Shown here piece after piece: positions 1-64,000 of a stretch of 64,000 bases of DNA. Position 1 is the first letter of the stretch; each line of letters begins with the position of its first letter. The stretch comes from Clostridia bacterium (GTDB taxonomy: Bacteria; Bacillota; Clostridia; UBA1212), in contig JAGDAX010000046.1 of NCBI GenBank assembly GCA_017848335.1, positions 2,752-66,751 of the forward strand, given 5' to 3'. The position numbers and the translations under genes are program-made. The notes under the pieces were generated by a model. It had not been told where the DNA came from. It searched no databases and was given only the letters and a program-made list of their open reading frames with translations.

Positions 1-179
1 TGCTTTTCGACGAGCCCACCAAGGGCCTTGACGTGGATGAAAAGAGGCGTCTCCGGGATATATTCCGGCGGCTTGGCGAGGACGGCAGGATCGTGATTTT
101 TGTGACGCACGATGAGGAATTTACGCTGATGGCGGCTAACCGCGTCGGCGTGCTCTCAGGCGGCAGGATACTGGAGTGA
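1..179 (+). CDS. ABC transporter ATP-binding protein, C-terminal fragment (5' end outside window)
   Basis: Frame 3 reads LFDEPTKGLDVDEKRRL...RIVIFVTHDEEF...GGRILE with stop TGA at 177-179. The Walker B (LFDEPT) and H-loop (VTHD) motifs are visible. Confidence 0.8.
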   Translation, partial: LFDEPTKGLDVDEKRRLRDIFRRLGEDGRIVIFVTHDEEFTLMAANRVGVLSGGRILE

Positions 180-282
180 AGGCAATAGGGGCGGCGGAAT
201 ATGCGGCCGGACCGTACGGTCAGAGGTTCCCGCAGGAGCCTTGCGGACCTGCGGCGGCCGCGGCGCAGACAGTGGGAAATAT

Positions 283-1080
283 ATGAACCGGACACTTTTT
301 CGCAGAATAATTTCATATTTCCTGGTGCTTGGGGCTGTGCCGGCGTTGGTGGTCGTGTTCGCGGCAGTAATGCCCGGAAGGTACTTCCTGCTGGTCGCCA
401 TCGGTATTGCGGTTTTGTCTGTGGGCTCCTTCTTCCTGAATTTCGAGAAGGAGCGCAACAATTCCGCCAGGACGGTGCTGACGGCGGTGTTTGCCGCGCT
501 GTCCACGGCCAGCCGCATTGTGTTCGCGGCGGTGCCGGGTTTCAAGCCGGTCATGAGCATGACGATGTTCGCGGGAATGTACCTTGGCGGTGACGCGGGT
601 TTTCTGGTGGGTGCTCTTACCGCGCTTCTCTCGAATTTCTTCTTCGGGCAGGGTGCGTGGACGCCGTTTCAGATGTTCCTGTGGGGGCTTATCGGGCTTT
701 TGGCCGGCGTGCTGGCAAAGCCGCTCAAAAAGAGCAGGATTTTCCTGTGCGTGGTGGGCGTTCTTGTGGGAGTAATGTTCTCGATGCTCATTGACGTGTG
801 GTCGACCGTGTGGATGTTCAACAGCTTCTCGCTCGAAAAGTATCTGGCGGTGGCCGCGCAGGGCGTTCCGTTTATGATAAGATACGGTGTTTCGAATACG
901 ATCTTTCTGCTGCTTTTGGCGGAGCCGATGAGGAAGACGATGGAGCGCGTTATGATAAAGTACGATATCGGGGTGGCGACCTTTTCGGGCAGTGAGAAAA
1001 GAGAAAAGCCGGGCAGTAAGAAAAGTGAGGACCCTGACAGTGAGATTTTGCCTAATAATACTGAAAAAACAGACCTTTAA
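283..1080 (+). CDS. Multi-pass membrane protein, ECF-transporter S-component-like
   Basis: ORF 241..1080, with ATG at 283 (MNRTLFRRII) as the likely start. It has several hydrophobic helices and a GQGAWTPFQMFLWGLIGLLAG motif, and it directly follows an ABC ATPase. Confidence 0.55.
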   Translation: MNRTLFRRIISYFLVLGAVPALVVVFAAVMPGRYFLLVAIGIAVLSVGSFFLNFEKERNNSARTVLTAVFAALSTASRIVFAAVPGFKPVMSMTMFAGMYLGGDAGFLVGALTALLSNFFFGQGAWTPFQMFLWGLIGLLAGVLAKPLKKSRIFLCVVGVLVGVMFSMLIDVWSTVWMFNSFSLEKYLAVAAQGVPFMIRYGVSNTIFLLLLAEPMRKTMERVMIKYDIGVATFSGSEKREKPGSKKSEDPDSEILPNNTEKTDL

Positions 1081-1165
1081 ACAAATGCGGATCCGGGAGA
1101 ATTTTATTGACTTTTTTTCTCGCCGGAGGTACAATAAGATAGATAATTCCGGGAGGTAAAACATT

Positions 1166-2218
1166 ATGGATGATAAGAAAACGTCGGACAGAAAAGCTGC
1201 TCTTGAGGCGGCAATTGCAGGAATAGAAAAACAATACGGCCAGGGCGCGGTAATGCGTCTGGGCGAGAATAAACATATGTCTGTGGATTCCGTTTCCACG
1301 GGATGCATAGGGCTTGACGCGGCTCTTGGCGTGGGAGGTCTTCCCAGGGGGAGAATCGTTGAGATATACGGGCCTGAGTCCTCGGGTAAGACCACGGTTG
1401 CGCTTCACGTGATAGCGGAGGCCCAGAAACAGGGAGGCGCGGCGGCTTTTATTGACGCGGAGCATGCGCTTGATCCGATCTATGCCTCAAATCTCGGTGT
1501 CGATATAGACAACCTTCTGGTTTCGCAGCCGGATACGGGCGAGCAGGCTCTCGAGATCGCGGAAGCACTGGTGAGGAGCGGCGCTATAGACGTTATCGTT
1601 ATTGACTCCGTGGCGGCTCTGGTGCCCAAGGCCGAGATCAACGGCGAGATGGGCGAGTCTTTTATGGGTCTGCAGGCGAGACTGATGTCGCAGGCGCTCA
1701 GGAAGCTGTCGGGCGTCATCAATAAATCCAACACCATCGCGATTTTCATCAATCAGCTGAGGGAGAAAATCGGCGTTATGTTCGGCAATCCGGAGACCAC
1801 CACAGGCGGCAAGGCTCTCAAGTTTTATTCGTCAGTCAGGATCGATATCCGCAAGGTTGACGTCATCAAAGAGGGCGGCGAAATCGTGGGCAACAGAACA
1901 AAGGCCAAGATCGTAAAGAACAAGGTCGCACCGCCCTTCAAGACGGTGGAATTCGATATTATTTACGGCAAGGGCATTTCCAAATCGGGCTCGCTGCTTG
2001 ATCTGGCGGTTATCAATGATATCATAGTCAAGAGCGGATCCTGGTTCTCCTATGACGGGAAGAGAATCGGCCAGGGGCGCGAGAATGCAAAGGCTTTCCT
2101 TGAGGACAATCCGGAGGTGTTTGCTGAAATCGAGAACAAGCTCCGTGTCGTGCTGAATTCCTCGGCGGCGGCCGTTCCGATAGCAATCGAGGAGACGTCG
2201 GACGAGGAGCAGGACTGA
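1166..2218 (+). CDS. recA: Recombinase RecA
   Basis: 350 aa. Contains GPESSGKTT (Walker A), FIDAEHALD and the [11 protein letters not shown] signature. A GGAGG-type RBS lies upstream. Confidence 0.98.
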
Positions 2219-2385
2219 TATATTGTCGCTGAATGCCCCGCATACATTCCTCCGCGTACGCTCCGCGAATTCCCTCGCGAATTCCCTCGCGTATCCTCTA
2301 CGTATTTTCTTGCACAACCCCTTGTACGGCTGACCGTTACTTGCGGTATTGGATTTTGACAGTGGCAAAGGCGCAGGCATGATAA

Positions 2386-3036
2386 ATGATTAAAGAACCG
2401 CTCAAGGCCGGTTTCGGACAGTCCGGCGAAAGGTATGCCGTCTCATCCTTCGAAAAGACAGAGGAAAAGACTTACAGGGTCGAATTTGCCAACGGTGAAA
2501 GTGAGATCTTCTCGCCCGAGGAGTTCATTAAGTATGACCTCTATGCCACCGGTGAGACGAACAGACATTCCTACCGCGAGCTTTATTGCGGCGTGAATTT
2601 CGGGAGGTGCAAGGCTGTCGCCGGAAGGCAGGCCGCGTCGTCGCCGAAGCCCTCGGCCGCGGTGGCTGCGTACGTGAGGGCGCTGGGATTTACGGACGAA
2701 ACGGTCATTGAAGTTATTGACGCGCTCAAGGAAGAGGGTGCGCTGGATGACGCCAGAGTGGCAGCAAGGCTTGCCGCTCAAAGGACAGCTGCCGGGAAGG
2801 CTTCGTCCGGGATGATAGTAAGAGAGCTGATCTCAAAAGGCATTGACCGCGAAGCTGCGGAAAATGCGGTCGGCGAGCTTGACTATTCGGACGCCGACGC
2901 CGCGGCTGCGATTGCCGAAAGCCGGAAAAGTCTCGGACAGGACGAGTTGAAGGTGATGCGGTACCTTGCGGGGAAGGGCTTCAGTCAAACTGTGGTTCTG
3001 GAGGCGGTTCGGAAGGTCTACGGGTGTGACGAGTGA
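2386..3036 (+). CDS. recX: RecX-like regulatory protein
   Basis: Lies immediately downstream of recA. The C-terminal two thirds show RecX-type three-helix repeats (VIEVIDALKEEGALDDARVA..., MIVRELISKGIDREAAENAV..., VMRYLAGKGFSQTVVLEAV). Confidence 0.75.
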   Translation: MIKEPLKAGFGQSGERYAVSSFEKTEEKTYRVEFANGESEIFSPEEFIKYDLYATGETNRHSYRELYCGVNFGRCKAVAGRQAASSPKPSAAVAAYVRALGFTDETVIEVIDALKEEGALDDARVAARLAAQRTAAGKASSGMIVRELISKGIDREAAENAVGELDYSDADAAAAIAESRKSLGQDELKVMRYLAGKGFSQTVVLEAVRKVYGCDE

Positions 3037-3195
3037 ATGCGGAGGGTTTGCCCGGCCGGTAAATGCGGAAGGCTTGCTTGACGGATAAGCGCGTAAGGCT
3101 TGCTTGACGGGAAAATCAGGAAGGCTTGATCTACGGGCAAAAGCGGAGGATCCGCTTGACGGATTAATGTGAAAGGGCTTCGTGAGTGACGGATA
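3037..3195. repeat. Degenerate ~26-nt tandem repeat (core GGAAGGCTTGCTTGACGGATAA), about 6 units
   Basis: Read directly between recX and rimO. The last unit overlaps the putative GTG start of rimO. Confidence 0.8.
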
Positions 3196-4760
3196 AAAAG
3201 GATTTTTCATCAGAAATGGTACCCGGAAATATTTCCGTGGGAATGATATCGCTGGGCTGCGCCAAAAACCGCATCGATTCAGAGATCATGCTCGGACTTT
3301 TGAAGGAAGCCGGGTATCGGATCACGGGCGACGAAAACAAAGCCGATATTGTCATAATTAATACCTGCGGGTTCATTGAGAGCTCCAAAAGGGAAGCAAT
3401 TGACGCGATTCTGGAGACCGCGGCTCTCAAGGAGAGCGGCAACGTAAAGGGGATTATTGTCGCGGGCTGCCTTGCGCAAAGGTACGGTAACGATATTGTG
3501 AAGTCCATGCCTGAGGTGGATGCCGTGATGGGCGCATACGGCTACAGCGATATATGCAAGGCCGTTGAAAGCGTGATTGGAAATGTAATCGGGCAAGCGG
3601 CCGGGAGTGTCCCGGAAGGCTTCGCTCAAAGCGCGGCACGTGATATTGGCGCGGCTCGCAATGTTGGTGCGGCCGGTAATATTGGCGAGGCTCGCAGCAG
3701 CGTTGACGGACGCGGAGAGGCGCCGGGAGAGGGACCGGCTTCCGGGAGGACAAGCGCTCAAAATGCAGCTCAAGGCGTTTGCTATTTTGACGATGAAGTG
3801 AGACTTTCGCTGGATTATCTTGACGGGGAAAGAGTGCTCACAACGCCGGGAAGCTACGCTTATCTGAAGCTGGCGGAGGGCTGCAGCAACAGATGCTCTT
3901 ATTGCGCCATTCCTTCAATCAAGGGACCCTTCAGAAGCAGGCCTTTGGAAAGTGTGCTTGCAGAGGCTGCCGCATTGGGGAAAAAAGGAATCAAAGAGCT
4001 GGTGCTGGTGGCTCAGGACAGCACGATGTACGGTCGGGATATTGCCGGAAGGTCGCTGCTGCCGGAATTGCTGGAGGGGCTTGACGGGATCGGCGGAATC
4101 AAGGCGGTGAGGATACTGTATCTGTATCCGGACGAGCTTGACGACGACATATTCGCGGCAATGACCCGCAGCAGGAAGCTTCTCCGCTATTTCGACATAC
4201 CGATGCAGCATATCAGCACGGCGGTTCTGAAGCGGATGAACAGGCGGGGCACAAAGGAAATGTATCTGGAAGCTCTGGAGAGGTTCCGCAGGGAAATGCC
4301 CGACTGCGTCATCAGAACGTCGCTTATTACCGGATTTCCCGGGGAGACAGAGGAAGACCACCGGGAGCTGAAGGATTTTTTGAGGACGGCAGCGGTGCAG
4401 CGCGCCGGAGTGTTTACGTATTCGCGCGAAGAGGGCACTAAAGCTGCGGGCTTTAAGGATCAGATTCACGGCAATACCAAAAAGAGACGTTACCGCGAGC
4501 TGATGGAGATTTTGAGGGCCAATTCGGAGGAATTCAACCGGAGCCGCGTCGGCAAGGTTTACGACGTGATCGTGGACGGAACGGCGGAGGACGGGATATT
4601 TTACACGGGGCGGTCATACATGGAGGCGCCGGAGGAGGACGGCTTGATTTATTTTGCCGCCAAGGACGAGCTTTCGCCGGGGGATATCGTGAAAGTGAAA
4701 ATACTGATTGCAGGCGAATATGACCTTACAGGCGAACAGGTGGAAGAGGACGAAGATTAG
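3186..4760 (+). CDS. rimO: Ribosomal protein S12 methylthiotransferase RimO (radical SAM MTTase) carrying a low-complexity insertion
   Basis: N-terminal SLGCAKNRIDSE...INTCGFI, radical-SAM CSNRCSYC motif, and a C-terminal TRAM-like region. The start may be the ATG at 3216 (MVPGNISVGMISLGC). The insertion spans about 3588-3777. Confidence 0.85.
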   Translation: MTDKKDFSSEMVPGNISVGMISLGCAKNRIDSEIMLGLLKEAGYRITGDENKADIVIINTCGFIESSKREAIDAILETAALKESGNVKGIIVAGCLAQRYGNDIVKSMPEVDAVMGAYGYSDICKAVESVIGNVIGQAAGSVPEGFAQSAARDIGAARNVGAAGNIGEARSSVDGRGEAPGEGPASGRTSAQNAAQGVCYFDDEVRLSLDYLDGERVLTTPGSYAYLKLAEGCSNRCSYCAIPSIKGPFRSRPLESVLAEAAALGKKGIKELVLVAQDSTMYGRDIAGRSLLPELLEGLDGIGGIKAVRILYLYPDELDDDIFAAMTRSRKLLRYFDIPMQHISTAVLKRMNRRGTKEMYLEALERFRREMPDCVIRTSLITGFPGETEEDHRELKDFLRTAAVQRAGVFTYSREEGTKAAGFKDQIHGNTKKRRYRELMEILRANSEEFNRSRVGKVYDVIVDGTAEDGIFYTGRSYMEAPEEDGLIYFAAKDELSPGDIVKVKILIAGEYDLTGEQVEEDED

Positions 4761-6733: not shown

Positions 6734-6919
6734 ACGGGCATTGTGTTTATGACCTGCTGCCGGCCTGCTGCTGAATTTTGCTGAACTGCTGCTGAGCTGC
6801 AGCTGACTTGATCGCGGCGCGTTTGCGGCATGACCTTAACGCGGTTATTGGTTATAACGTGATTATGGCTTGTCTTTTATCCGGGCCGTTGGAAAATGTA
6901 TTATACGGAGGTAGTAAGA

Positions 6920-7141: not shown

Positions 7142-7143
7142 TT

Positions 7144-7305
7144 TTGTAAGCCTTGTAAGCTTTTGTAACCGCTGTAAGCCTTTCTTCGTCTTGTGAGCCG
7201 CTGCTGATCTGCGGCTGATCTGCGACTGGTCTGCAACTGATCTTTGGATGAACTGCGGCTGATCTTCGGCAGATCTGCGGCTGGTTTTCGGCAGATCTTC
7301 GGCGG
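7144..7305. repeat. Two adjacent short tandem repeats (TTGTAAGCC-like 9-10-mer, then CTGCGGCTGATCT-like 13-mer)
   Basis: Read directly in the acpP-rnc spacer. Confidence 0.75.
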
Positions 7306-8876: not shown

Positions 8877-8892
8877 CTGCCGGTGAATAATG

Positions 8893-8997
8893 CCCGCGGA
8901 ACGCTCTTGGCAGATAAGACCGCGGAACGCTCTTGGCAGGTAAGCCCGCGGAACGCTCTTGGCGGATAAGACCGCGGAAGGACGCCGGCAGACAGGC
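8893..8997. repeat. 26-nt tandem repeat CCGCGGAACGCTCTTGGCAGATAAGA, 4 units
   Basis: Read directly, starting 17 nt after the thuA-like stop codon. Confidence 0.85.
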
Positions 8998-9278
8998 CCG
9001 CATTATGATCATACTACTTGGAAATGCCGCTTTTGCGTTGACCGGACGTGCCGGGAATGTCAGGCGGCTTTTTCATAGACCGTTTCGTTAATCGGAAGGC
9101 CGCTGAGGAAGGCCGGGCGCTGCAGGGAGGTAAATTGCAGGCCGTGTTGTCCTCGGCATGGTTCCGTTTTACAGGTCGAGCTGCAGCAGCAGGGCTTTAC
9201 GATAAGGTTTTACGTTTTGAGGTACAAGGTTAAAGTACAAAGGTTAAAGTACAAGGTTGGAGTACAAGGAGAGGATCC

Positions 9279-10622
9279 GTGTCACAGAGCAGGTTTCAAA
9301 ACAGGCAGAAGCTTCTGATAATACCTATATTCGTTCCGCATGCCGGCTGCCCTCACGACTGCTGCTTCTGCAATCAGAAGCTCATCAGCGGCAGCATCCG
9401 GGAGCCAGGGGCGGCGGAAATTGAGAAAACCATAGGAAGCTTCGCAGAGGCGGCAAAAAGGTATGACCGGGTGGAGATTGCTTTCTACGGCGGCAGCTTT
9501 ACCGCGATAGAGGGCGGCAGGCAGGATTTTTATCTTGAAGCTGCGAGTAAATATCTAAAGCGGAACGGCGGCTTTGCGGACTCTTTGAGGGCCTCCACCA
9601 GACCGGATCGTATTGACGGTGAGGTGATTCGGAGACTCAAAAAATACGGGCTTGACGTGGTGGAACTGGGGGCCCAGTCCATGGACGACAACGTGCTGAG
9701 GCTTTCGGGGCGCGGGCACAGGGCTTCCGATACGGAAAGAGCCGCGGCAATGCTCAAGGAGAACGGATTTGTACTGGGTCTTCAGACGATGCAGGGGCTT
9801 CCCGGTGCAGACCGCGAGTCCGACGTTGAGACTGCCGTGAGGATTGCCGGGCTGAGGCCTGATTTCGTGAGAATATATCCCACCGTAGTGGTGAAGCAGA
9901 CGAAGCTTTATGAGGACTATATCCGGGGCGATTATACGCCCTTGTCGGTTGAGGACGCGGTGGCGCTGGTTTCGAGGCTTTGCGGGATCTACAGAAGCAG
10001 CGGTATTCCTGTTGCCAGAATCGGCCTTCAGTCGACGGACACGATCTCGAGAGAGGGCGCGGGGACTGAGATTGCTGCGGGGCCGTATCACGAAGCCTTC
10101 GGGCAGCTGGTGACGTCATACGACGTCAGGCGTGCCGTGAAGAGCGCCGTGGATCATATCCGGGAGGATTATATCAATATGAACGAACGCCGCAAGCTTT
10201 GTGTGAAGCGGCTTTACGTGGTTGTGCCGCCGGAGCGGGTTTCGGACGCGACGGGGCAAAGGCGGTCAAACGCGGAAACAATGGCCCGTGAATGCGGTGC
10301 GGAGCGTGTGACTGTGCTGTCGAAGGACAGCTTCGACGCGGACTTCAGGCGGCTTCCCGGGCAGGCGACCGAGGCGTCGGCCTATGCGGAAGCGGCCGCT
10401 GTGAAGGTGCTGCGTTGCGGCCGCGGGGCTCCTGCAGAAAACAAGCCTGAGGCGCCTGAGAAGTTTGGAGCGCTTGAGGCGCTTGAACCATTTGAGGCGC
10501 CTGAGAAGTCTGGAGCGCTTGAGGCGCCTAAACCGTTTGAGGCGCATAAGACGCGTGAGACGCCTGAGACGCCCGGGGAAATGCTGCCTGTGGCTGTCAG
10601 CGTGAGAATGCGGTTTAATTAA
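9279..10622 (+). CDS. Radical SAM protein (ELP3-like N-terminal radical-SAM domain) with a repeat-derived C-terminal tail
   Basis: GTG start. IPIFVPHAGCPHDCCFCNQ carries the CxxxCxxC cluster. The tail PEAPEKFGALEALEPFEAPEKSGALEAPKPFEA is encoded by a DNA tandem repeat at about 10437-10600. Confidence 0.75.
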   Translation: MSQSRFQNRQKLLIIPIFVPHAGCPHDCCFCNQKLISGSIREPGAAEIEKTIGSFAEAAKRYDRVEIAFYGGSFTAIEGGRQDFYLEAASKYLKRNGGFADSLRASTRPDRIDGEVIRRLKKYGLDVVELGAQSMDDNVLRLSGRGHRASDTERAAAMLKENGFVLGLQTMQGLPGADRESDVETAVRIAGLRPDFVRIYPTVVVKQTKLYEDYIRGDYTPLSVEDAVALVSRLCGIYRSSGIPVARIGLQSTDTISREGAGTEIAAGPYHEAFGQLVTSYDVRRAVKSAVDHIREDYINMNERRKLCVKRLYVVVPPERVSDATGQRRSNAETMARECGAERVTVLSKDSFDADFRRLPGQATEASAYAEAAAVKVLRCGRGAPAENKPEAPEKFGALEALEPFEAPEKSGALEAPKPFEAHKTRETPETPGEMLPVAVSVRMRFN

Positions 10623-10672
10623 AAGCTGATTGCACTGCAACGAAACTCGCCTTGCCCGTACTGCAGCACAAG

Positions 10673-10728
10673 CTTTGATTACATTGCAATGACTGCTTTG
10701 ATTACATTGCAATGACTGCTTTGATCAC
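10673..10728. repeat. 23-nt tandem repeat CTTTGATTACATTGCAATGACTG, about 2.4 units
   Basis: Read directly. Overlaps the comEA stop codon region. Confidence 0.8.
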
Positions 10729-11486
10729 ACCGTAATGTAGGCCTTGATCTCGTTGTATCTGGCGGCTTTGATGCCGCTGACGTTCATTATTTCGGTAATA
10801 GACGAGAAGGGGCCGTTTTCGGTGCGGTAGCTGACAATCTTGAGGGCGGTGCTTTCGCCGATGCCCGGCAGAGTACAGAGCTCGCTGACTGAGGCGGTGT
10901 TGATATTGACGAGCCCGGAGCCCTGTGGATCGCGGGTGCCGGAGGAGCCGGAGGGCCCGGAAAGGCCTGCGTCGATGATCCATTTTTTGTCTGTATCGTC
11001 AATATACGGGACCCGAATCATCATTCCGCTCTCAAGGGTAAAGGCGAGGTTTACGGCTTCGCGGTCCGCATTTTCGCTGAGCCCGCCTGCGGCTGCGACC
11101 AGATCGTTTAGGATCGAGCCCGCCGGGATCTCGTAGACGTCGGATTTTTCGACAGCGCCGACAATATAGACCACAATCATATCACTTGGCGTATCGTTCC
11201 CGTCGGTCGGAGCTTCCTCCTGAGCAGGCGTTTCTGAGGGTCCGGGGGTTCCGGCTTTAAAAGGCGATCCGGAAGCGGATGCGGAAGTGTTCGCGGACCC
11301 GGGTGTGATTCTGCCGCTGCCTGTTTTTTTCTCGAAAAGATACCCCCCGACAATAAGAACGGCTGCGACAAAAACGATCAAAACGTATTTCACAAAAACC
11401 GGCACGTAAAACGTTCTGCCGAACAACCTGAATCTCACTGAATGTCTGCCCCCTTTCGCACTGTGTCTGAGGAAAAGCCGGTTCAC
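10725..11486 (-). CDS. comEA: Competence protein ComEA (SLBB plus helix-hairpin-helix DNA-binding domain)
   Basis: N-terminal TM helix. The C-terminus LVNINTASVSELCTLPGIGESTALKIVSYRTENGPFSSITEIMNVSGI is a classic ComEA HhH. Confidence 0.85.
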   Translation of the reverse strand: MNRLFLRHSAKGGRHSVRFRLFGRTFYVPVFVKYVLIVFVAAVLIVGGYLFEKKTGSGRITPGSANTSASASGSPFKAGTPGPSETPAQEEAPTDGNDTPSDMIVVYIVGAVEKSDVYEIPAGSILNDLVAAAGGLSENADREAVNLAFTLESGMMIRVPYIDDTDKKWIIDAGLSGPSGSSGTRDPQGSGLVNINTASVSELCTLPGIGESTALKIVSYRTENGPFSSITEIMNVSGIKAARYNEIKAYITV

Positions 11487-11777
11487 GAAGCGTTTTCCGT
11501 GTGTTCCCGGCGTACGCCGCTGTTAAGCTCCCGGCAGCCGCTGTATTTCCCGGAAAACGCAAGGTCGCTCTGCGAACCCACAAGCACCGGCCGCCGCCGT
11601 AAATTCCGGGAGACGCCGAACAGCTTGCACCGGCCGCCGTATTTCCCGGCAGCCTCCGCAGAAGTGATGGTATTTCATTTTCCGGACCGCGTCAACAGCG
11701 GGAAATATTATCGCGCAAAAGGCAACGGGCGACGCGCGGGGATCATTGCCTGCCGGTTGAGAGGCCGCGTTTGCTTC

Positions 11778-11938
11778 GTGAGGATCCATAAAGTGACTCA
11801 GTGAGGATCCATAAAGCGGCTTCGTGAGGATCCATAAAGCGGCTCCGTGAGGATCCATAAAGCGGCTTCGTGAGGATCCATAAAGCGGCTTCGTGAGGAT
11901 CCATAAAGCGGCTCCATGAAGAGCCATAAAGTCCCAGG
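11778..11938. repeat. 23-nt tandem repeat GTGAGGATCCATAAAGCGGCTYC, 7 units
   Basis: Unit boundaries read directly at 11778, 11801, 11824, 11847, 11870, 11893 and 11916. The first and last units are the most diverged. Confidence 0.9.
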
Positions 11939-13723: not shown

Positions 13724-13804
13724 GAGAGGGGCGGCTTGCCTAAAACAAGGCAAAACCGTGAGAGCCGGCGCGTCAGAAAAGGTGAACCGGCGGATACCTC
13801 GTGC

Positions 13805-13912
13805 CGCGAGAATTATGCGTGCCGTAAGAATCGTGCGGACCGCGAGAATTATGCGTGCCGTGAGAATCGTGCGGGTCGCGAGAATAATGCGTGCCGTGAG
13901 ACCCGCCGGACC
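13805..13912. repeat. 36-nt tandem repeat CGCGAGAATTATGCGTGCCGTRAGAATCGTGCGGRY, 3 units
   Basis: Units read directly at 13805, 13841 and 13877. Confidence 0.9.
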
Positions 13913-15916: not shown

Positions 15917-16957
15917 ATGGGAAGACTGTTTATTATCGGGGATACTCATTTCGGGCTGGACGTCGATAAGCCTATGGACGTTTTCGGCGGCCAGTGGGCG
16001 GATCATGCCTCGAAAATTACCGAAAACTGGGCAAAAACGGTCTCGGACGGCGATATAACCGTTGTGAACGGCGACCTTTCCTGGGGGATCAACCGGCAGG
16101 AGACGCGGTGCGACCTGGCGCTGCTCAATTCCTTCGCGGGCAGGAAGATCCTCGTGAAGGGCAACCACGATCTCTGGTGGGATACCATGGCGAAGCTTTC
16201 GCGGCAGATACAGGAAGAGCATTTGGACAGCCTGCTGCCGCTTTACAACAGCGCGTATTTCATTCCGCGGGCGAATATTCTGATCTGCGGAACGAGGGGC
16301 TGGAAGGTGCCTGAGAATGCGGACTACCAGCCTTCGGACGCGAAAATACTGCGCCGGGAAATGATGCGCTTTGAGCTGTCCGTCAATTACGGTCTGGCTC
16401 TGGTCGAAAAATACAGAAAAGGCATCGGGGATCGCGCGGCAGCAGGAGGCACAGGTGCTGCCGGCACAGGTGCAGGCTGCGCGGGTGCAGGCGGCGGAGG
16501 GGCTGCCGGCGGAAGCGATGCCGGCGCACAGGGAATTCTTGATTTTGGCGGCGGGGCCGCTGTACGGTCAGGTGCGCCGGCAGAGGGCGGCGAAGCCGCC
16601 CGGGCGGCCGCGGCCAACGAAACCGGTGCGGCTGCCGATGCTGCAGCCGCTGCTGCTGATAATACAGCCGCGGCAGAAAATGCGGCCGCGGCCGCGCTTC
16701 CGCCCCCCGAAATAATAGCCGTGTTCCATTATCCGCCTTTTGACTACGGCACAAGGCACGAAACCGACTGGGCGGAGCTGCTTTCACGGTATCACGTAAA
16801 ACGGTGCTACTTTGGGCACGTGCACAACGCAGGTTCCTGCAAAAGGAATGACGCGGGGGAAGTGCTTCCGGTGCTTCAAAGGGACGGTGTCAGCTATTAT
16901 CTTACTGCGGCAGATTATCTCGGATTCGAGCCGATGGAGATCGCATTTCGCCGGTAG
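15917..16957 (+). CDS. Metallophosphoesterase with a long Ala/Gly-rich internal insertion
   Basis: FIIGDTHFG and VKGNHDLWW motifs, with a C-terminal GHVH. The insertion spans about 16412-16727. Confidence 0.75.
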   Translation: MGRLFIIGDTHFGLDVDKPMDVFGGQWADHASKITENWAKTVSDGDITVVNGDLSWGINRQETRCDLALLNSFAGRKILVKGNHDLWWDTMAKLSRQIQEEHLDSLLPLYNSAYFIPRANILICGTRGWKVPENADYQPSDAKILRREMMRFELSVNYGLALVEKYRKGIGDRAAAGGTGAAGTGAGCAGAGGGGAAGGSDAGAQGILDFGGGAAVRSGAPAEGGEAARAAAANETGAAADAAAAAADNTAAAENAAAAALPPPEIIAVFHYPPFDYGTRHETDWAELLSRYHVKRCYFGHVHNAGSCKRNDAGEVLPVLQRDGVSYYLTAADYLGFEPMEIAFRR

Positions 16958-17042: not shown

Positions 17043-17142
17043 GCCGGGCATAGAGGCTAAGCAGACCGCAAACACCGAGGCACAGCCGGGCATAGAGCCT
17101 AAGCAGACCGCAAACACCGAAGCACTGCCGGGCCGAGAGCCC
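17043..17142. repeat. 42-nt tandem repeat GCCGGGCATAGAGSCTAAGCAGACCGCAAACACCGARGCAC, about 2.4 units
   Basis: Read directly downstream of the metallophosphoesterase gene. Confidence 0.85.
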
Positions 17143-20434: not shown

Positions 20435-20594
20435 GGGCCGGCGGTCTCGTTACTTCCCGGCGGAGCTGACACTTTTTCCGCATGCTGCGAGCCCGGAAAA
20501 TTACGCGGCTTGCTGCCGGAAAACTTCGCCGCTTGCTGCGGCCAAACGATTTTGCAATACAGTGACACACGACAAAAATGTTTTGGAGGCTATT

Positions 20595-39911: not shown

Positions 39912-39935
39912 GGGCCCGTTTCGGAGGATATAATT

Positions 39936-44955: not shown

Positions 44956-45117
44956 TTTTCAGCAGGCGGCAAGGGAGCCGCGGGCATTCGCGGAATTTTT
45001 GACAGCCGCGGCGAAGCTTTTCAGCAGGCGGCAAGGGAGCCGCGGGCCTTCGCGGAATTTATGACAGCCGCGGCGATGCTTTTCAGCAGGCGGCAAGGGA
45101 GCCGCGGGCCTTCGCGA
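44956..45117. repeat. 62-nt tandem repeat (TTTTCAGCAGGCGGCAAGGGAGCCGCGGGCMTTCGCGGAATTTWTGACAGCCGCGGCGAWGC), 2.6 units
   Basis: Units start at 44956, 45018 and 45080. Confidence 0.9.
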
Positions 45118-48300: not shown

Positions 48301-48436
48301 GTGAGATTATCGCGAAGTGTGAGATTTTTGCGAGGTGTGAGGCTCCTGCGGCCCGTGAGATCCCCGCGAAGCGTGAGAGCCTTGCGGTCAGTGAGATTCC
48401 CGGAAAATCATTATCGCAGACCGTGAAATTATCGCG
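48301..48436. repeat. ~17-nt degenerate tandem repeat (GTGAGATTWTCGCGAAG-like), about 7 units
   Basis: Read directly downstream of secG. Confidence 0.75.
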
Positions 48437-48550: not shown

Positions 48551-50122
48551 ATGAAACCGCGGAAGGAGGGCTCCCGCAAATTGAGTGACAGGAAAAAGAA
48601 ATCACAAATTGACGCGGAGATACGCACGGACTGCGGCGGGCTCCGTTCCGGGGAGGAAATCCATGAAGGCGGCGGGCTCCGTTCCGGGGTGGAAAACACC
48701 GAAAGCGGCCGCCCGGAAGGTGCATTCTCCGAAAGCATCCGCACCGAAAGCGGCGGGCTCCGTTCCGGGGAGGGATCAGCTGAAAAAGCTTCTTCCGAAA
48801 AATCTTCCGAAACCGAAACAGCAGCCGCCAAGGGCGCCCGTTCCGGCAGAAAAAAGCTCAAATGGATGCGGCTCGACAATGCCGCGCTCATATTTCCCGC
48901 CGCGCTCCGTAAGAACTGGAGCAACGCCTTCAGGATCTCATTCTCGTTCAGGGACCTCGTGGAGCCGGACGTGCTCGCGCAGGCCCTCCGGAGCATTGCC
49001 CCCAGATTTCCCACGGTGGTGGTGCGCCTCAAGCGGAGCCTGTTCTGGTATTACATTGAGGAGCTGCCGGAGCCGCCGGGCATTGGCGCGGACAGCGATA
49101 TGCCGCTTTGCGGAATGACCCGCAGAGACCTGGGGCGGTCGGCCATCCGCGTGCTTTATTATCGCGACAGGATGGCGGTGGAATATTTCCACGCAGTGAC
49201 GGACGGGACGGGCGGTATGATTTTTGCCAAAAATCTGGCTGCCGAGTACGTGAGGCTGCGGTACGGCGCCGGGGTTCCCTGCGAATTCGACGTCAAGGAT
49301 CTGTCCGCGAAGGCTCCGGAGAGCGAGTTTAAGGACCGATTCCCCGACAATGCAGGCAGCGTTGCCTTCCCGCGCGAGAAGGGCCCTGTCTTCAGGTTCA
49401 AGGGCGACAAGGAGCCGGACCTTTTCCTGCACGTTACGAAGGGTGTGCTTGACGCGGAGCACGTGCTGCGCGTGGCCCGCGAGAAGGGCGTCACGGTGAC
49501 GGAGTACCTTACCGCGGTGCTCGTGGAGTCGATCATCGCAATCCAGAGCCGGAAAATACGCGACAGACGGCGCCAAAAGAAGGTCAAGGTGCAGATCCCG
49601 GTCAACCTTCGCAAGCTTTACAATGCGGACACCATGCGCAATTTCGTGGCGGTGGCCAGCGTGGGCGTCGACCCGCGAATGGGCGACTACACCTTCGACG
49701 AGCTTTTGAAGCTCATTCACCACCAGCTGCAGATCTCGCTCAACCCCAAAAATATGGCGGCCGTTTTCAAGCAGAACGTGCTGGACGAGCAGAACCCGCT
49801 GGTGAAGCCCGTGCCGCTTTTCATCAAGAATATCGTGATGAGGATGGTCTTTGACCGCGTTGGCGAGAGCGCAGCCTGCCTGTCCTTTTCGAACCTTGGC
49901 GCGATAATGCTCCCCGACGCCATGAAGGACTACGTCACCGACGTGGAATTCATACTGGGCGCACAGGCGGACTCGCCTTATAACACGTCGCTCACGACCT
50001 ACGGCGGCAAGCTCAATTTCAATATGGTCAGAAATACCGTGGAGCCGGTGCTGGAGCGCGAATTCTTTACGCGGCTCGTGAAGCTGGGCTTCCACGTCAA
50101 GATTGACGGCAACTTCCGGTGA
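48551..50122 (+). CDS. HxxxD acyltransferase of the alcohol-acetyltransferase/condensation superfamily, with a repeat-derived N-terminal extension
   Basis: W.RLDNAALIFPA and FHAVTDGTGG motifs. The start is uncertain. The N-terminal ~100 aa contain a GGLRSG(E/V)E repeat, encoded by a DNA repeat at about 48620-48790. Confidence 0.65.
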   Translation: MKPRKEGSRKLSDRKKKSQIDAEIRTDCGGLRSGEEIHEGGGLRSGVENTESGRPEGAFSESIRTESGGLRSGEGSAEKASSEKSSETETAAAKGARSGRKKLKWMRLDNAALIFPAALRKNWSNAFRISFSFRDLVEPDVLAQALRSIAPRFPTVVVRLKRSLFWYYIEELPEPPGIGADSDMPLCGMTRRDLGRSAIRVLYYRDRMAVEYFHAVTDGTGGMIFAKNLAAEYVRLRYGAGVPCEFDVKDLSAKAPESEFKDRFPDNAGSVAFPREKGPVFRFKGDKEPDLFLHVTKGVLDAEHVLRVAREKGVTVTEYLTAVLVESIIAIQSRKIRDRRRQKKVKVQIPVNLRKLYNADTMRNFVAVASVGVDPRMGDYTFDELLKLIHHQLQISLNPKNMAAVFKQNVLDEQNPLVKPVPLFIKNIVMRMVFDRVGESAACLSFSNLGAIMLPDAMKDYVTDVEFILGAQADSPYNTSLTTYGGKLNFNMVRNTVEPVLEREFFTRLVKLGFHVKIDGNFR

Positions 50123-50854: not shown

Positions 50855-51385
50855 TTTCAGGCTGAAGAAGGCCGGAGGCAAGGGGCCGGAGGCAAGGGGC
50901 AGGAGGCAAGGGACAGGAGGCCGGAGGCCGGAGTCCGCTGCGCGGTTGCCCGGTGAAGCTTCGCGGCTTGAATAGATGGGCCCGCGTCTTCCCTGCAGCT
51001 GCCGAAAGCGCCGGCCTATAGCCTTACAGTGTCAGAACCTGCACGGCGCCGCGTTCTCGTTGACTTAAAGCCTCTCTTTATAATATAATAATATGGGGCA
51101 AAACTGCCTCTTTTTGGTCTTTGAGAACGTCGGCGAGAACGTCGGCGGAAGCATTTTCCAAGGCCTGCGTCGGTGGAAAATCTGCGGCGGGATCAGGCGG
51201 AGAAAGCACGCGGCGGGATCAGGCGGAGAAAGCACGCGGACGGGATGCTCTTATCGGGCAAAATTCAAAAAGGCGCACTTCCCGGCGAGGGGGATGCCCT
51301 TTACGGACAAATACCGGACAAACGCAAAAAGTTGTAAGCCGGGGCACCGCTCCGGAAAATTTAAAAAGCATTGGGGATGATATAA

Positions 51386-54291: not shown

Positions 54292-54496
54292 GCGCCGGGA
54301 AAGGCCGGGGCCAGAGGCCGGAGATTGGCGCGCGTTCCGCGCGAGCTACGAGCCGTGAGTTACCGGCTATGGGATGCGGGTTGCGGGTTGCGGGTGCCGC
54401 CGCACGCGTCGCGCGCAGCGGCCGGCAGCCGGAGAACTTCGCGCGGTTGGCCCCTTCCCAACCAAAACAAAATAAACAAAAACAGGAGACAGACTA

Positions 54497-57384: not shown

Positions 57385-57600
57385 CGGGAAATTCCGGGGA
57401 AATGCCCGGGAAATGTCCGGGGAATACCGGGGAAACGCCCGGGAAATACCGGGGAAATACCCGGGAAATACTGGGGAAATGCCCGGGAAACGCCCGGGAA
57501 ATACCCGGGGAAATGTCCGGAAAACGCCCGGGAAATACTCAGGAAATGCCCGGGAAATGCTCGGGAAACGCCCGGGAAATACCGGACGGCAGGGAAACGC
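57385..57600. repeat. 11-12-nt tandem repeat CCCGGGAAATRY, about 18 degenerate units
   Basis: Read directly, immediately after the secA stop codon. Confidence 0.9.
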
Positions 57601-57681
57601 CTTAACGGGCTTTGAAACGTTAACGGACTTTAGCGCCTTAACAGGCTTTAATGCAGATTGATTGAAGGGAGGCGATACGTT

Positions 57682-59604
57682 ATGACACTGAAGGAACTGG
57701 CGAGAAATTTTAAAAAGATATCAGGCTACGGCGACGGCCAGGGCGCGGGTGCGGCGTACCGCCTCTACAACGAAGCGCTTGATCTGATTGCGGAGCAGAA
57801 TTACAAGGAGGCGCGGCAGCTGCTCAAGACCGCGATCCGGTACTACCCGGCCTTTGACGACGGTTATATGCTGCTGGGCCTTACGCAATTTGCCTGCGGC
57901 AACAGAATTGAGGCGCTGAAGACCATCAACCAGATATCGCACCCCGGAAAGCACAACACCGCCATGAAGTACTACGACGCGATCTCAGGCGGCAGCGCGA
58001 CGCCGGATATTTACGCGAGCCGCGGCAATACAGGCAGAAGGCAGCCCTCGGACGTGCCGGGCCAGTCCGGAGAAGGTGTGTTCGCGGTCTCCGACATGGA
58101 AACCAAAGCCTCGCCCGACAATGCATTCCGCGGCGGCGAAAACAGGTATACCGGAGACGGAGGCTCTTATAACGGCGGCCCGAAAAGAGGCGGCGCTTCA
58201 GCGGATTTTTCCGATTCGGGCGTGGCAGACGAAAACTATTCGCCGCCAAAGGACGCTCCTTTTGAAAAGGATGCGCCGTCCGAAGGCTCCGGCGGCAGGC
58301 TTGACGGAAGCTCCGACGGCAGATACAACGGGAAAAACGAGACGGATCCTGAGGAGGAATTGATAGTATTCAGCGAAGCGCCGGCCCACAGGGACGCACC
58401 GCGGATGACCGACTTTGAGAGGCGTTTCAAAAAGGCGCGCGAATCCGCCGAGGAGGCCCTCGGATATGAGAGGCGCGGCTTGTCGGGCAACACCGGGGCG
58501 GCCGAAAGGGAGCCCGCAAACGACCTGGTGCTCAGCAATCCGGATGATTTCGCGGAGCATATTTACTATGGTGGCGAAGAACCGTACCGCGGCCGCGAAG
58601 AGACTTACCGCGGCGGCGAAGAAATCTACCGCGGCCGCGAATCGGGCGCGGAGGGCGGCCGCGGGTATTCAGCCGTCGGCGCGGACTCAGGCGCCGGGGA
58701 AGCTTCCCCCGACGGTGTGAAGACTGCCGGCACTGACAAAGAAACCGCCGGGGGCGCAGCTAAGGCCATGGACGGGGACCGGACAAACGGCCGGGAGGGG
58801 CAGAACGGTCAAAGAAGTCCAAAAGCCCCGAAGGATCAAAGCGGCCAAGGCGGCCAAAGCCTTCGGAAGGGCGGCTCCAAAAAGGTCGTCATGGCGCTGG
58901 TGGTGGCGGCTTGTATTCTCGTGCTTGCGGGGCTGGGGGCGCTTGCCGCGTCAAAGCACCTTGCGCACATAGACCGGACCGCCGGGACTTCCACGGCATC
59001 GCCTTCTCCGAACAGCTCTGCTGCACCTGAGGACACGGCATCGCATTCTCCGAACAGCTCTGCTGCACCTGAGGACACGGCAGAGCCTTCCGAAACGCCT
59101 GAAGCGACGGATGACCCGACTGAAACGGCCACGGGGCAGGAAACCCCGGAGCCTACCGCTGAGGCGACTCCGGAGCCCTCCGATTCGGCGGCGGATGCGC
59201 TTGCTGCGGCCAAAGCTTATTTTAATGATAAAAATTATTACGATTGCTACGTGGCGCTCTACGGCAGGGACCTTGGCGGGCTTTCTCCGCAGGAAGCGTC
59301 GGAGGCTGCGAAGCTCAGCAAGGACTCCCTCGGGCTGTTCTCAAGGGATTACTACAATCTGATGTACAGCAGCGTCGGCTCCGAGGAGTGGGAAAAGGTG
59401 CTGAAATACGCTCTCCCGATAATAAAATACAATCCGGATTACGAGCAGGGCGGCGCGGTTTATTTCCATGCCGGCAAGGCCTGCGAGCTTCTGGGGGACG
59501 CCGAAAATGCGCGCAAATACTATCAGGAGACGATGACGAGGTTCGCCGGTACGGCCTACGAGGAATATGCGCGATACCGCCTGTCGACAATGCCGTCTGG
59601 ATGA
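57682..59604 (+). CDS. TPR-like protein with a long disordered region, one TM helix and internal repeats
   Basis: The ATG lies after a GGGAGG RBS. TPR-like helices occur at both ends, with a TM helix VVMALVVAACILVLAGLGALAA. Internal DNA repeats lie at about 58570-58640 (24-nt units) and 59003-59085 (about 39-nt units). Confidence 0.55.
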   Translation: MTLKELARNFKKISGYGDGQGAGAAYRLYNEALDLIAEQNYKEARQLLKTAIRYYPAFDDGYMLLGLTQFACGNRIEALKTINQISHPGKHNTAMKYYDAISGGSATPDIYASRGNTGRRQPSDVPGQSGEGVFAVSDMETKASPDNAFRGGENRYTGDGGSYNGGPKRGGASADFSDSGVADENYSPPKDAPFEKDAPSEGSGGRLDGSSDGRYNGKNETDPEEELIVFSEAPAHRDAPRMTDFERRFKKARESAEEALGYERRGLSGNTGAAEREPANDLVLSNPDDFAEHIYYGGEEPYRGREETYRGGEEIYRGRESGAEGGRGYSAVGADSGAGEASPDGVKTAGTDKETAGGAAKAMDGDRTNGREGQNGQRSPKAPKDQSGQGGQSLRKGGSKKVVMALVVAACILVLAGLGALAASKHLAHIDRTAGTSTASPSPNSSAAPEDTASHSPNSSAAPEDTAEPSETPEATDDPTETATGQETPEPTAEATPEPSDSAADALAAAKAYFNDKNYYDCYVALYGRDLGGLSPQEASEAAKLSKDSLGLFSRDYYNLMYSSVGSEEWEKVLKYALPIIKYNPDYEQGGAVYFHAGKACELLGDAENARKYYQETMTRFAGTAYEEYARYRLSTMPSG

Positions 59605-62112: not shown

Positions 62113-62224
62113 TAGCTTAGAAAGCGCGGCCGCCTTAGAAGCAAAAGCGTGCTCTGACGCAAATGCACACGCAGACGCAAGAGCGCACGCAGCTGCAGAA
62201 GCGGTTCGCCGCATAATCACATAA

Positions 62225-62987: not shown

Positions 62988-63105
62988 TAAGGAGCTCCGG
63001 TGACCGATAAGGATATCCGGTGACCGGGAAGGAACCTCGGCGACTGCAGGAGCTTCGGAGGATTGCAGGAACTTCGGTGGCCTGCAGGAGCTTCGGAGGA
63101 CTTCA
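62988..63105. repeat. 19-20-nt degenerate tandem repeat (AGGAGCTTCGGAGGAYTKC-like), about 6 units
   Basis: Read directly in the rplJ-rplL spacer. Confidence 0.75.
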
Positions 63106-63211
63106 GCGCACTGAGGTCAGGAATGCGATTCGGCGAAGCGTCCGGGATCCCCGGGCGAATCAAAGGGGATAACCCCTGCATTTGTAAAATATTTATTTGG
63201 AGGAAAATAAA

Positions 63212-63589
63212 ATGTCTGAAAAGATCCAACAGATTATCGATACTATCGATACTATGACAGTTCTCGAGCTCTATGATCTCGTTAAAGCAATTGAAGAGAA
63301 GTACGGCGTAACCGCTGCTGCAGCAGTAGCATTTGCTCCCGCTGCCGGCGGCGACGCTGCCCCCGCAGCTGCTGAGCAGACCGAATTCACCGTTGTGCTG
63401 ACCAACGCAGGCGGCAACAAGATGAACGTTATCAAGGTCGTTAAGGACGCTTGCGGCGTTGCTCTTATGGACGCCAAGAAGCTTGTTGACGGCGCCCCCG
63501 CCACCCTCAAGGAGAACATCTCCAAAGAGGATGCTGACGCTCTGGCTGCCAAGCTCAAAGAGGCCGGCGCTGAGGTCGAGATCAAGTAA
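63212..63589 (+). CDS. rplL: 50S ribosomal protein L7/L12
   Basis: Begins [33 protein letters not shown] and ends ...[13 protein letters not shown]. Confidence 0.97.
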
Positions 63590-63613
63590 TTATTTGGCTT
63601 TCGGAAGTCCTTG

Positions 63614-63654
63614 TTTGTGAGCCGGTCTTTGTGAGCCGGTGTTTGTGAGCCGGT
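63614..63654. repeat. 14-nt tandem repeat TTTGTGAGCCGGTN, 3 units
   Basis: Read directly after the rplL stop codon. Confidence 0.8.
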
Positions 63655-63720
63655 CTCAGAAAACAGGGCTCGTAAGGCAGCCTTAAATACAGGCTGCCCG
63701 ACAAGGACAATACAGAGGTT

Positions 63721-63750
63721 AAGGCGTCTTCGGGCGCCTTTTCTGCGTTT
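63721..63750 (+). terminator. Rho-independent terminator after rplL (UUCG tetraloop)
   Basis: AAGGCGTC, loop ttcg, GGCGCCTT, followed by TTCTGCGTTTT. Confidence 0.7.
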
Positions 63751-64000
63751 TGAGGGGGTCGGCGCGGCAGCTCCTTCGCAGGCCGCGCCGACTGGGTTCG
63801 CATCGCAGGGGCCGCGTCGCAGGATAAGACGGCCGCGTCTTCATTCAGCCGCTGTTGAAGTCTCCGGCCTCTGGCCTTACAGCCGCCTTCAAACTCATTA
63901 ACGCACTTTTTGACTTATGGGCAGCTTTTTTATAAAATGTATGGGAAATCCGCAGAGGGAATGCTTTTGCGGAAAAACGTATTTATGCGGACCTTTGAGG

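Follow-up and report, generated by a model that had tools for sequence, protein, structure and literature searches.

We analysed the tandem repeats in a 64,000-nt stretch of DNA (the window) from an uncultured gut or rumen Clostridia bacterium of the GTDB lineage UBA1212, corresponding to positions 2752-66751 of contig JAGDAX010000046.1 in the metagenome-assembled genome (MAG) GCA_017848335.1 (2.41 Mb, 169 contigs, 55.5% GC, ~79% completeness). Most of the longer intergenic spacers in the window carry an array in which a short unit, private to its locus, is repeated head to tail with point differences between the copies, and the same pattern extends over the whole genome. These arrays are most probably non-functional minisatellites with a fast turnover, produced by a raised rate of short tandem duplication together with slippage of whole units and filtered by selection. 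The genes of the window are ordinary housekeeping genes (recA, miaB-like, uvrC, ileS, rplM-rpsI, prfA, secA, secE-nusG and the rplKAJL cluster), and the RecA of the closest Clostridia MAG is only 72% identical to that of the host.

Arrays were called with Tandem Repeats Finder (TRF) at a score of at least 50, and overlapping rows were merged. In the window, 96 TRF rows were merged into 45 arrays covering 5.5% of the bases, and 23 of the 32 spacers of at least 100 nt (72%) contained at least one. A first-pass annotation made by a model from the letters alone had reported such repeats in nearly every spacer; this was somewhat overstated, although most spacers do carry arrays. All 21 loci it had named coincide with TRF arrays, its description of units and copies was borne out (periods of 7-62 nt and copy numbers of 1.9-17.7 at these loci), and the copies abut without spacers, which excludes CRISPR as it had stated. 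Genome-wide, 1,360 merged arrays were obtained (565/Mb, 4.45% of bases), of which our own gene calls place 954 between genes, 324 within coding sequence and 82 across a gene edge, and among spacers of 200-1000 nt the array-bearing share was 65-81%. These calls were made with a self-trained dicodon caller (1,647 genes) and yield 77.6% coding sequence as a lower bound; when the public gene calls of a 99.8%-identical contig are used instead, the window is 81% coding and its median spacer measures 221 nt. Arrays cover 14.8% of the noncoding bases versus 1.5% of the coding bases. Compared genome-wide with random expectation, as the first-pass annotation had proposed, the arrays are far in excess: depending on the TRF threshold 16-20% of spacer bases were array-covered versus 0.0-0.5% in dinucleotide-preserving shuffles, and 625 perfect tandem duplications were counted versus 37 in a block-shuffled genome. 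The median period is 22 nt and the median copy number ~2.8; periods are spread over 7-100 nt without a favoured unit size, and hierarchical periods (11/22, 18/36, 26/52, 8/40/56) are frequent. Match percentages range from 60 to 100, with 85-95% being commonest among the intergenic arrays and 143 of 954 (~15%) exceeding 95%. Head-to-tail copies of units of ~7-100 nt are the hallmark of minisatellites or variable-number tandem repeats (VNTRs), and the arrays have this form.

Variation between strains was followed in ten further samples at 24 loci, whose identity to the window is 98.8-100%; they were retrieved by exact-protein matches and stem from at least two assembly pipelines, and all are short-read assemblies, which can collapse repeats. 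All arrays of the window were present in the assemblies from these samples. Over 190 kb with 571 substitutions, all eight indels of at least 2 nt were located in or next to arrays (5.5% of the window, as given above), and six of them corresponded to multiples of a unit. One strain has 36 additional nt (2 x 18) adjoining the in-frame 18-nt x3.4 array at 3631..3691 (+ strand), which encodes an interdomain linker of a MiaB-like radical-SAM protein. In each of the other five cases one strain lacks nucleotides: 34 nt (2 x 17) from the 17/51-nt array at 21599..21740 (TRF starts 21599/21634), 46 nt (~2 x 22) from the pair of AT-rich arrays at 29423..29604 (20-nt x3.8 and 21/22-nt x2.5), 36 nt (1 x 36, coding) from the in-frame 36-nt x2.6 array at 43818..43913 (+ strand) in the C-terminal part of a helix-turn-helix (HTH) protein, 62 nt (1 x 62) from the 62-nt x2.6 array at 44956..45116 (96% matches), and 55 nt (5 x 11) from the 11-nt x17.7 array at 57385..57580, which begins 11 nt past the secA stop. 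Three distinct 1-nt indels were found, one beside an array at 63041 and two outside arrays. Whole-unit copy-number differences between strains, the defining property of VNTRs and a polymorphism that the first-pass annotation had suggested looking for among strains and MAGs, were thus observed six times across the ten samples, in assemblies and not in reads. This amounts to 6-8 events per 133 array-by-strain comparisons at ~0.3% divergence (the compared strains being 99.5-99.9% identical), and within arrays to about one unit change per four to five point substitutions, which explains why the arrays are slightly degenerate and not homogenised.

The same data bear on the concern that the assembly or binning of a short-read MAG produced the arrays artificially, which the fragmentation into 169 contigs and the known mishandling of repeats by short-read assemblers might suggest. 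The same arrays with identical point differences between their units recur in independent assemblies from 10 samples and at least two pipelines; moreover, assemblers collapse repeats and do not create degenerate copies, and reading frames stay open across the coding arrays. The artefact reading is effectively refuted, and we assign it next to no probability.

To place these densities in the lineage, 20-200 kb were sampled per relative and set against 80 diverse bacterial loci, which were taken from distant phyla with RecA as query. TRF arrays decrease from 565/Mb in this genome to 250/Mb, 150/Mb and 120/Mb in the congeners G003, G004 and G006, 32-42/Mb in the same family and 0-33/Mb in the same order, with a median of 74/Mb in the diverse loci. 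Perfect duplications with periods of 10-100 nt follow the same direction, with 169/Mb here, 106/Mb in G003, 54/Mb in G004, 25/Mb in congener G001, 14/Mb in G006, 7/Mb in the family and 3/Mb in the order, compared to 25/Mb in the diverse loci. Even the coding arrays of this genome, at ~174/Mb of coding DNA, reach several times the total array density of the family relatives. The excess is lineage-specific, in line with the host-specific process that the first-pass annotation had put forward. Base composition also varies within the family, the genus members G000-G007 having 50-55% GC and the family relatives G008-G020 37-41% GC; a 50%-GC genome of the same order contains 12.5 TRF arrays/Mb, which shows that GC content alone is not the cause.

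The sharpest contrast was found with a sister species whose contig (k141_957813 of ERZ27298518, IleRS 91% identical) is fully syntenic with 16-46 kb of the window: it holds 2 arrays in 23.1 kb (~87/Mb) versus 20 in the matching 30.2 kb here (~660/Mb), and the summed spacers of the syntenic segment measure 2,755 nt in the sister species versus 4,091 nt here. At individual loci, the spacer with the 42-nt x2.4 array at 17043..17141 measures 214 nt in this genome compared to 57 nt in the sister species; the corresponding lengths are 470 and 277 nt for the 16-nt x2.6 array at 19324..19365, 160 and 35 nt for the 23-nt x2.0-2.4 array at 20493..20547, 405 and 210 nt for the convergent spacer with the array at 21599..21740, 221 and 58 nt for the 18-nt x1.9 array at 31617..31651, which is part of a ~95-nt repeated block, and 249 and 114 nt for the array at 44956..45116. 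Three more spacers measure 51-80, 22 and 110 nt in contigs of a species with 87-90%-identical SecA versus 218, 206 and 309 nt here. The array at 57385..57580 is absent from seven congeners and from the sister species, and the rplJ-rplL spacer is 306 nt long here versus 130-148 nt in seven congeners, the excess corresponding to a pair of arrays (20-nt x2 and 19-nt x3.4) at 62988..63106. Single-copy seeds of young arrays were sought in the sister species, whose spacers are too diverged to be aligned past the gene edges. Since any detectable array is necessarily young, non-sharing between species is expected regardless; what is informative is the density difference and the net growth of spacers between species, not the lack of shared arrays.

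An accumulation of this kind could in principle arise at an ordinary duplication rate if a small effective population size or a relaxed selection for compactness retained the usual products of slippage. The long spacers (median 186-221 nt), the low coding density (78-81%), the accumulation of arrays wherever constraint is weak and the uncultured, host-associated nature of the bacterium would be in line with such retention. However, the density of perfect and therefore very young duplications is 25-50 times that of the family and order relatives and ~7 times that of diverse bacteria, and with the youngest class so enriched, retention alone acts too slowly. In addition, selection against frameshifts is effective, as seen from the coding arrays described below, and the sister species from a like habitat has compact spacers. 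We therefore consider unaided retention unlikely.

Array cover follows constraint. In coding sequences the period is divisible by three in 322 of 324 arrays (99.4%) versus 38.6% of the intergenic arrays, which fits a single genome-wide process filtered by selection. Housekeeping proteins have been lengthened in this way, for example by the linker array of the MiaB-like protein and in the HTH protein with the array at 43818..43913 (282 aa here, its counterpart in the sister species having 219 aa); within the order, no PolA or MutL frame is longer than the one found here. Among spacer types, divergent spacers, which hold two promoters, show the lowest array cover (10.8%), compared to 17.6-17.8% in convergent and tandem spacers. 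Within a spacer, arrays occur throughout the first 80% and become scarce in the last 20% ahead of the next start, mainly avoiding the final ~50 nt, and 109 arrays cover a stop codon versus 21 covering a start codon. Arrays beginning within 20 nt past a stop number 136, versus 50-107 in each later 20-nt bin. The statement in the first-pass annotation that arrays usually lie just downstream of a stop codon was right insofar as there is a roughly twofold enrichment at this position, but 'usually' does not agree with the median stop-to-array distance of 77 nt. The excess at stops may reflect tolerance rather than mechanism, as a duplication across the stop leaves the protein unchanged. Template switching at transcription ends, suggested in the same annotation, has no specific support, given the spread of arrays over the first 80% of spacers, their variable order relative to terminator-like hairpins and the pair of arrays inside the co-transcribed rplJ-rplL spacer.

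The enrichment at and right after stops also needs to be discussed with regard to a selected function of the arrays, be it as padding of the 3' untranslated region (3' UTR) or terminator, as insulators, as regulatory or architectural RNAs, or as promoter spacers tunable by copy number. Arrays have a higher G+C content (~56%) than the spacer sequence around them, their sense strand shows a mild bias towards A (AT skew of 0.12 in arrays versus 0.05 in the remaining spacer, positive in 58% of the arrays), their copy number differs among strains, and a function has been proposed for the tandem repeats of Borg elements (PMC9879509). Against this stand the private units, which exclude a shared trans-acting factor, a hairpin potential of the units with zero excess (mean z -0.33), and orthologous spacers in the sister species and seven congeners that work without arrays; furthermore, arrays are also found within the rplJ-rplL spacer and within housekeeping genes. 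Terminator-like sites are barely commoner on the sense strand (291 spacers) than on the antisense strand (221 spacers), and 81 arrays lie before the first such site, 61 overlap it and 128 follow it, so that the order is not fixed; a GC-rich hairpin with a T run at a constant place after the stop, as in intrinsic terminators and 3' UTR elements, was not found. Phase-variable contingency loci consist of units of 1-7 nt that shift the reading frame or the promoter spacing, whereas here the units are mostly 10-60 nt long (11-62 nt in the arrays at issue), the coding arrays stay in frame and the last ~50 nt before starts are shunned. Terminator-like padding and phase variation, which the first-pass annotation had offered as alternatives, found no support, and a selected function in general appears quite improbable to us.

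The relation to base composition was further seen in segments of less than 42% GC, which contain 71 arrays/Mb versus 589/Mb in the backbone. These segments are presumably foreign, and their low density fits a dependence on residence time, with a dependence on GC as the alternative. In the window, an AT-rich segment at 24509-29699 is inserted between pmbA/tldD and rpsI; it consists mostly of one gene for a 1,194-aa DEAD/Helicase_C protein (25177-28761), is absent from the sister species (279 nt between pmbA/tldD and rpsI) and is present in all near-identical strains. The first-pass annotation had stated that this island lacks arrays, which agrees with the genome-wide paucity in low-GC segments, but AT-rich arrays do occur beside the island gene, at 29423-29497 and 29550-29604 on its right flank (the pair from which one strain lacks 46 nt). 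Further repeats were called at the left edge (14/29/39-nt array, 24595..24700), at 24915..24939 (9-nt x2.8, perfect) and, in frame, within the helicase gene (21-nt x2.0, 28144..28184, - strand).

In an all-against-all clustering of the consensus units, 1,205 of 1,360 (~89%) were singletons. The exceptions form two small families, a 14-mer of GAGTTATGGGAC type (32 arrays) and a 7/14-mer of AGGCCGG type (21 arrays), and both flank a dispersed noncoding element of ~110-130 nt with the 12-mer core AATGCAGACGCG, which occurs at 67 sites genome-wide and carries a GCGCGTTCCGCGC hairpin besides the flanking AGGCCGG heptamer and GAGTTATGGGAC 14-mer arrays. Its consensus reads ...GGATTCCGCGTCTGCATTTTGAG.CACGAACGGTTCACGCG..AGCGTGCTCAG.GAGGG.CTCAATATGCTGCGCGG..., Rfam yields no match for it in the window, and it looks like a MITE (miniature inverted-repeat transposable element) or a repetitive extragenic palindromic (REP) sequence. 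Copies or parts of it are located in the window at 35640..35760 (partial copy with the core AATGCAGACGCG, - strand), at 50869..50933 (a 7/14-nt GGCCGGAGGCAAGG array belonging to the dispersed AGGCCGG family) and at 54300..54440 (a composite of AGGCCGG units, the GCGCGTTCCGCGC hairpin, GAGTTAYGGGA-like units and GGGTTGC x3.6, in a spacer of 206 nt versus 22 nt in the sister species). The conclusion of the first-pass annotation that the units are unrelated and do not belong to a dispersed family of REP sequences or bacterial interspersed mosaic elements (BIMEs) was therefore correct for the singletons and missed the two families on the 67-site element.

With such an element at hand, the arrays might all derive, as its parts or as what decay has left of them, from a mobile REP/MITE-like family that carries internal minisatellites into spacers. 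The 67 sites with their flanking arrays and hairpin, the presence of CGCGGAA-type words in many units and the composite copy upstream of secA, which accounts for ~185 nt extra in that spacer compared to the sister species, would support this view. Yet the two families comprise only ~53 of the 1,360 arrays, the coding arrays and most intergenic arrays do not resemble the element, and the differences between strains concern whole units inside arrays, not the presence or absence of an element. A single unit recurring at many loci, as in REP/BIME, MITE or MIRU-type families (MIRU, mycobacterial interspersed repetitive unit), was not observed apart from the two small families. A REP/MITE-like family exists and accounts for only ~4% of the arrays; a mobile origin of the arrays as a whole is very improbable.

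Of the explanations considered in the first-pass annotation, a host-specific mutational process acting over time is favoured by the lineage-specific excess, the in-frame coding arrays, the whole-unit changes between strains and the absence of the arrays from orthologous spacers of relatives. From these observations we infer both the raised duplication rate and the following molecular route. Head-to-tail duplication of local stretches of ~7-100 nt (median 22) would be unusually frequent, less so in some congeners, and slipped-strand misalignment or unequal exchange between sister strands would add or remove whole units in existing arrays. Point mutation would outpace homogenisation and leave the arrays slightly degenerate, while selection would purge duplications that break reading frames or harm promoters and ribosome-binding sites. 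The survivors would collect in unconstrained DNA, i.e. past stops, in the middle of spacers, in convergent spacers and in frame within linkers and tails, and spacers would grow by insertion, opposite to the usual deletion bias of bacteria. A minority of the arrays would be carried on the small dispersed hairpin-bearing element. Perfect repeats of 2.x copies with periods of at least 11 nt give access to the most recent events: 258 of 318 are embedded in older degenerate arrays, which indicates that new duplications mostly arise within existing arrays, and 60 are isolated founders. The founders include homology-independent events as well as microhomology-bounded or multi-step ones.

Several observations weigh against a raised duplication rate filtered by selection as the full explanation. 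Flanking identity amounts to 0-1 nt in half of the founders and to at least 3 nt in 45% versus ~6% expected, so that simple slippage between short direct repeats is not the whole story, and microhomology, tried as a diagnostic signature, gave a mixed and non-diagnostic result. The twofold excess at stops, the higher G+C content and the mild A-over-T bias on the sense strand are features that a purely neutral model may not explain. The copy-number differences rest on short-read assemblies, which are prone to collapsing repeats, and our own coding fraction of 77.6% is a lower bound, with 81% in the window by public calls. On sequence data, a raised duplication rate is inseparable from weaker purging. 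Finally, a cause was not found among the repair and replication genes checked in this genome and its relatives, and a lineage-specific polymerase or repair gene set tracking the repeats, for which the first-pass annotation had proposed to look, did not emerge. Loss of a repair gene was rejected, as the PolA 5'-nuclease domain (PF02739), MutS_I, MutL_C, the large subunit of ExoVII and RecJ are present here and in all good-quality relatives; a second PF02739 match at a contig end is probably the same polA split over two contigs, judging from synteny. The content of Y-family polymerases was rejected as well, because the canonical DinB-type enzyme is missing in some congeners and present in the high-density G003, i.e. 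it is uncorrelated with array density. RecJ scores ~100 bits lower against a curated model across the genus, with the catalytic motifs of the DHH family intact; together with the GC shift of the genus, this lower score points to a possible lineage-wide shift in mutation or repair.

As a tentative extension, this species and, independently, at least one congener could be in a heritable 'tandem-duplication mutator' state, in which a change in a replication or repair protein, and not the simple loss of a gene, would give rise to short, largely homology-independent duplications at many times the normal rate. We regard this as a possibility with clearly less than even chances.

The remaining arrays of the window are distributed over its whole length. 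In the first part, a perfect 12-nt x2.3 array lies in the recA-recX spacer (2264..2291), a 26-nt x2.4 array directly past the recX-like stop (3067..3128) and an 11-nt x5.3 array after the plsX-like stop (6750..6806). The acyl-carrier-protein gene is followed by two adjoining arrays (19-nt x2.2 and 11/22-nt x9.2/4.6; 7142..7303), and a 26/52-nt hierarchical array and a 13-nt x3.6 array are found at 8892..8991 and 9222..9269. A radical-SAM protein carries a 9/18/45-nt in-frame array in its C-terminal tail (10448..10572, + strand); a 23-nt x2.5 array lies in a convergent spacer (10672..10729) and a 23-nt x6.9 array in a divergent spacer of 767 nt (11773..11931). An 18/36-nt array lies upstream of uvrC (13800..13901), and in-frame arrays were detected in the C-terminal part of a metallophosphatase-like gene (15-, 12- and 21-nt units, 16448..16671, + strand) and at 18717..18756 (18-nt x2.2, + strand).

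Further downstream, a 10-nt x4.7 array (30775..30821) and a 27/53/80-nt hierarchical array (34896..35090) were found, the latter being annotated in public calls as part of a 168-aa open reading frame (ORF; 34885-35391). Similarly, the array past secA at 57385..57580 is called publicly as a 67-aa gene (57402-57605); both ORFs consist largely or wholly of array sequence and are likely to be false genes. An 8/40/56-nt hierarchical array of GCGGCCAG type occupies 36306..36459. Genes are sparse in this region: over 1.7 kb between ileS and a large F5/8-type-C esterase-like gene, a small ORF of 58-77 aa (35883/35940-36116) stands alone, followed by a hairpin and T-run terminator gggaggattttgtctttcccgcttttttcc (36117-36581 region). 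A 15-nt x2.1 AT-rich repeat lies between two esterase-like genes (39930..39961), a 12/36-nt in-frame array in the C-terminal tail of an acyltransferase (45961..46090, + strand), 18/36-nt arrays after secG (48301..48402) and a 36-nt x2.1 in-frame repeat at the 5' end of a publicly called 513-aa gene (48633..48709, + strand). Upstream of prfA, a perfect 12-nt x2.1 array is combined with a 26-nt x2.4 array (51123..51246).

Behind the long secA array, a decayed 18-nt x3.1 array (57596..57651) precedes the gene for a 640-aa tetratricopeptide-repeat (TPR) protein (57682-59604), which contains two in-frame arrays (21-nt x3.2, 58574..58641, and 42-nt x2.2, 58992..59082; both + strand). In seven congeners no ortholog aligns over more than half of its length, with a gene of similar size at the same place, and the protein appears to be fast-evolving. 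In the ribosomal protein cluster, an 18-nt x2.1 array directly past the rplA stop (62156..62192) lies 5' of an intact, conserved leader-like element upstream of rplJ (62200-62389; tgccaaagacgccggc...gtaagtcctgccgagg...aaccttcgg...cgaaggtttttgatttggaaggaggtg), which is kept in 8/8 genus members and resembles the L10-leader type while scoring below every Rfam gathering score. Rfam and tRNA scans of the window gave zero matches at gathering thresholds. At 63041, between the two arrays of the rplJ-rplL spacer, 5/5 other samples covering the site have one extra G, which the genome of the window has either lost by a private 1-nt deletion or lacks through an error of assembly. A 14-nt x3.1 array follows the rplL stop (63614..63656).

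The kind of feature described here is already known, and this genome is a new and extreme bacterial member that stands out by the degree of the phenomenon and by the contrast between sister species. Among the related systems are the VNTR loci used for strain typing by multilocus VNTR analysis (MLVA; for example MIRU-VNTR in Mycobacterium). These too are head-to-tail repeats of ~10-100 nt that often lie between genes or in frame within them, and their whole-unit polymorphism among strains is ascribed to slipped-strand mispairing. VNTR-typed genomes are usually described with tens of loci, compared to ~1,360 here, and MIRUs are a dispersed family whereas ~89% of the units here are private. Flap-processing mutants (yeast rad27, the 5'-exonuclease of E. 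coli polA) show a genome-wide excess of short tandem duplications of ~5-100 bp, typically bounded by short direct repeats; in contrast, about half of the isolated founders in this genome lack microhomology, and the PolA 5'-nuclease domain is present here as in all relatives.

In the Borg elements of Methanoperedens, repeat units are unique to their locus, close relatives or the host have virtually none of these repeats, unit numbers vary within populations, and all Borg repeats in ORFs have units divisible by three, compared to only 14-38% of the intergenic ones (PMC9879509). The arrays described here share the locus-unique units seemingly derived from local sequence, the in-frame ORF repeats (with 39% of the intergenic ones divisible by three), the absence from relatives and the additional low-complexity protein segments. 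Borg repeats are perfect, strongly A-enriched and located on a giant linear archaeal element (PMC9879509), whereas the present arrays are mostly degenerate (matches of 60-100%, far from SNP-free), have ~56% GC with a mild A bias, lie on a bacterial chromosome and give no indication of a function. In a survey of prokaryotic satellites, group medians were 0-3/Mb and only 18 of 119 reference bacteria exceeded 4/Mb (Subirana and Messeguer 2019, PMC6749651). When the SATFIND criterion was re-implemented approximately, this genome gave 64 satellites/Mb, within the range of the archaeon Methanosarcina. Like the Methanosarcina satellites (PMC6749651) and the repeats of Bacillus, the arrays are locus-specific short-unit noncoding repeats that are dense in particular lineages and follow taxonomy in their distribution; the constant-size repeats of Bacillus have a preferred unit size (PMC8161180), in contrast to the periods spread over 7-100 nt here.

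For Ehrlichia ruminantium, a low coding ratio with active expansion and contraction at noncoding tandem repeats is described (Frutos et al. 2006 as summarised in PMC10710844). Both genomes have in common a low coding ratio due to long repeat-holding intergenic regions and whole-unit differences between strains; E. ruminantium is an obligate intracellular alphaproteobacterium of ~1.3 Mb with ~64% coding sequence, while the present genome is a 2.4-Mb Clostridia genome with 55% GC and 78-81% coding sequence. The units here are mostly 10-60 nt long, there are ~1,360 arrays, and an in-frame coding excess is seen as well, all of which differs from E. ruminantium. The plasticity of that genome reportedly involves units of ~150 bp.

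Bacterial genomes are thought to be kept compact by deletion-biased mutation (Mira et al. 2001 and later work, as cited in PMC6054270). In this species the extra spacer DNA, with spacers ~50% longer than in the sister species, is mostly supplied by tandem duplication, which makes it a natural case of insertion-driven growth. In practice, the arrays are mis-called as hypothetical genes and break or collapse short-read assemblies, and they would serve as high-resolution strain markers. In-frame repeats that lengthen housekeeping proteins are raw material for new linkers and tails, and with sister species that differ so sharply, the cause could in principle be mapped. If a heritable mutator state did exist, it would reverse the deletion bias and create new spacer DNA and protein linkers, and the difference between ~660 and ~87 arrays/Mb in species ~91% identical in protein would constitute a natural experiment for mapping the responsible gene.

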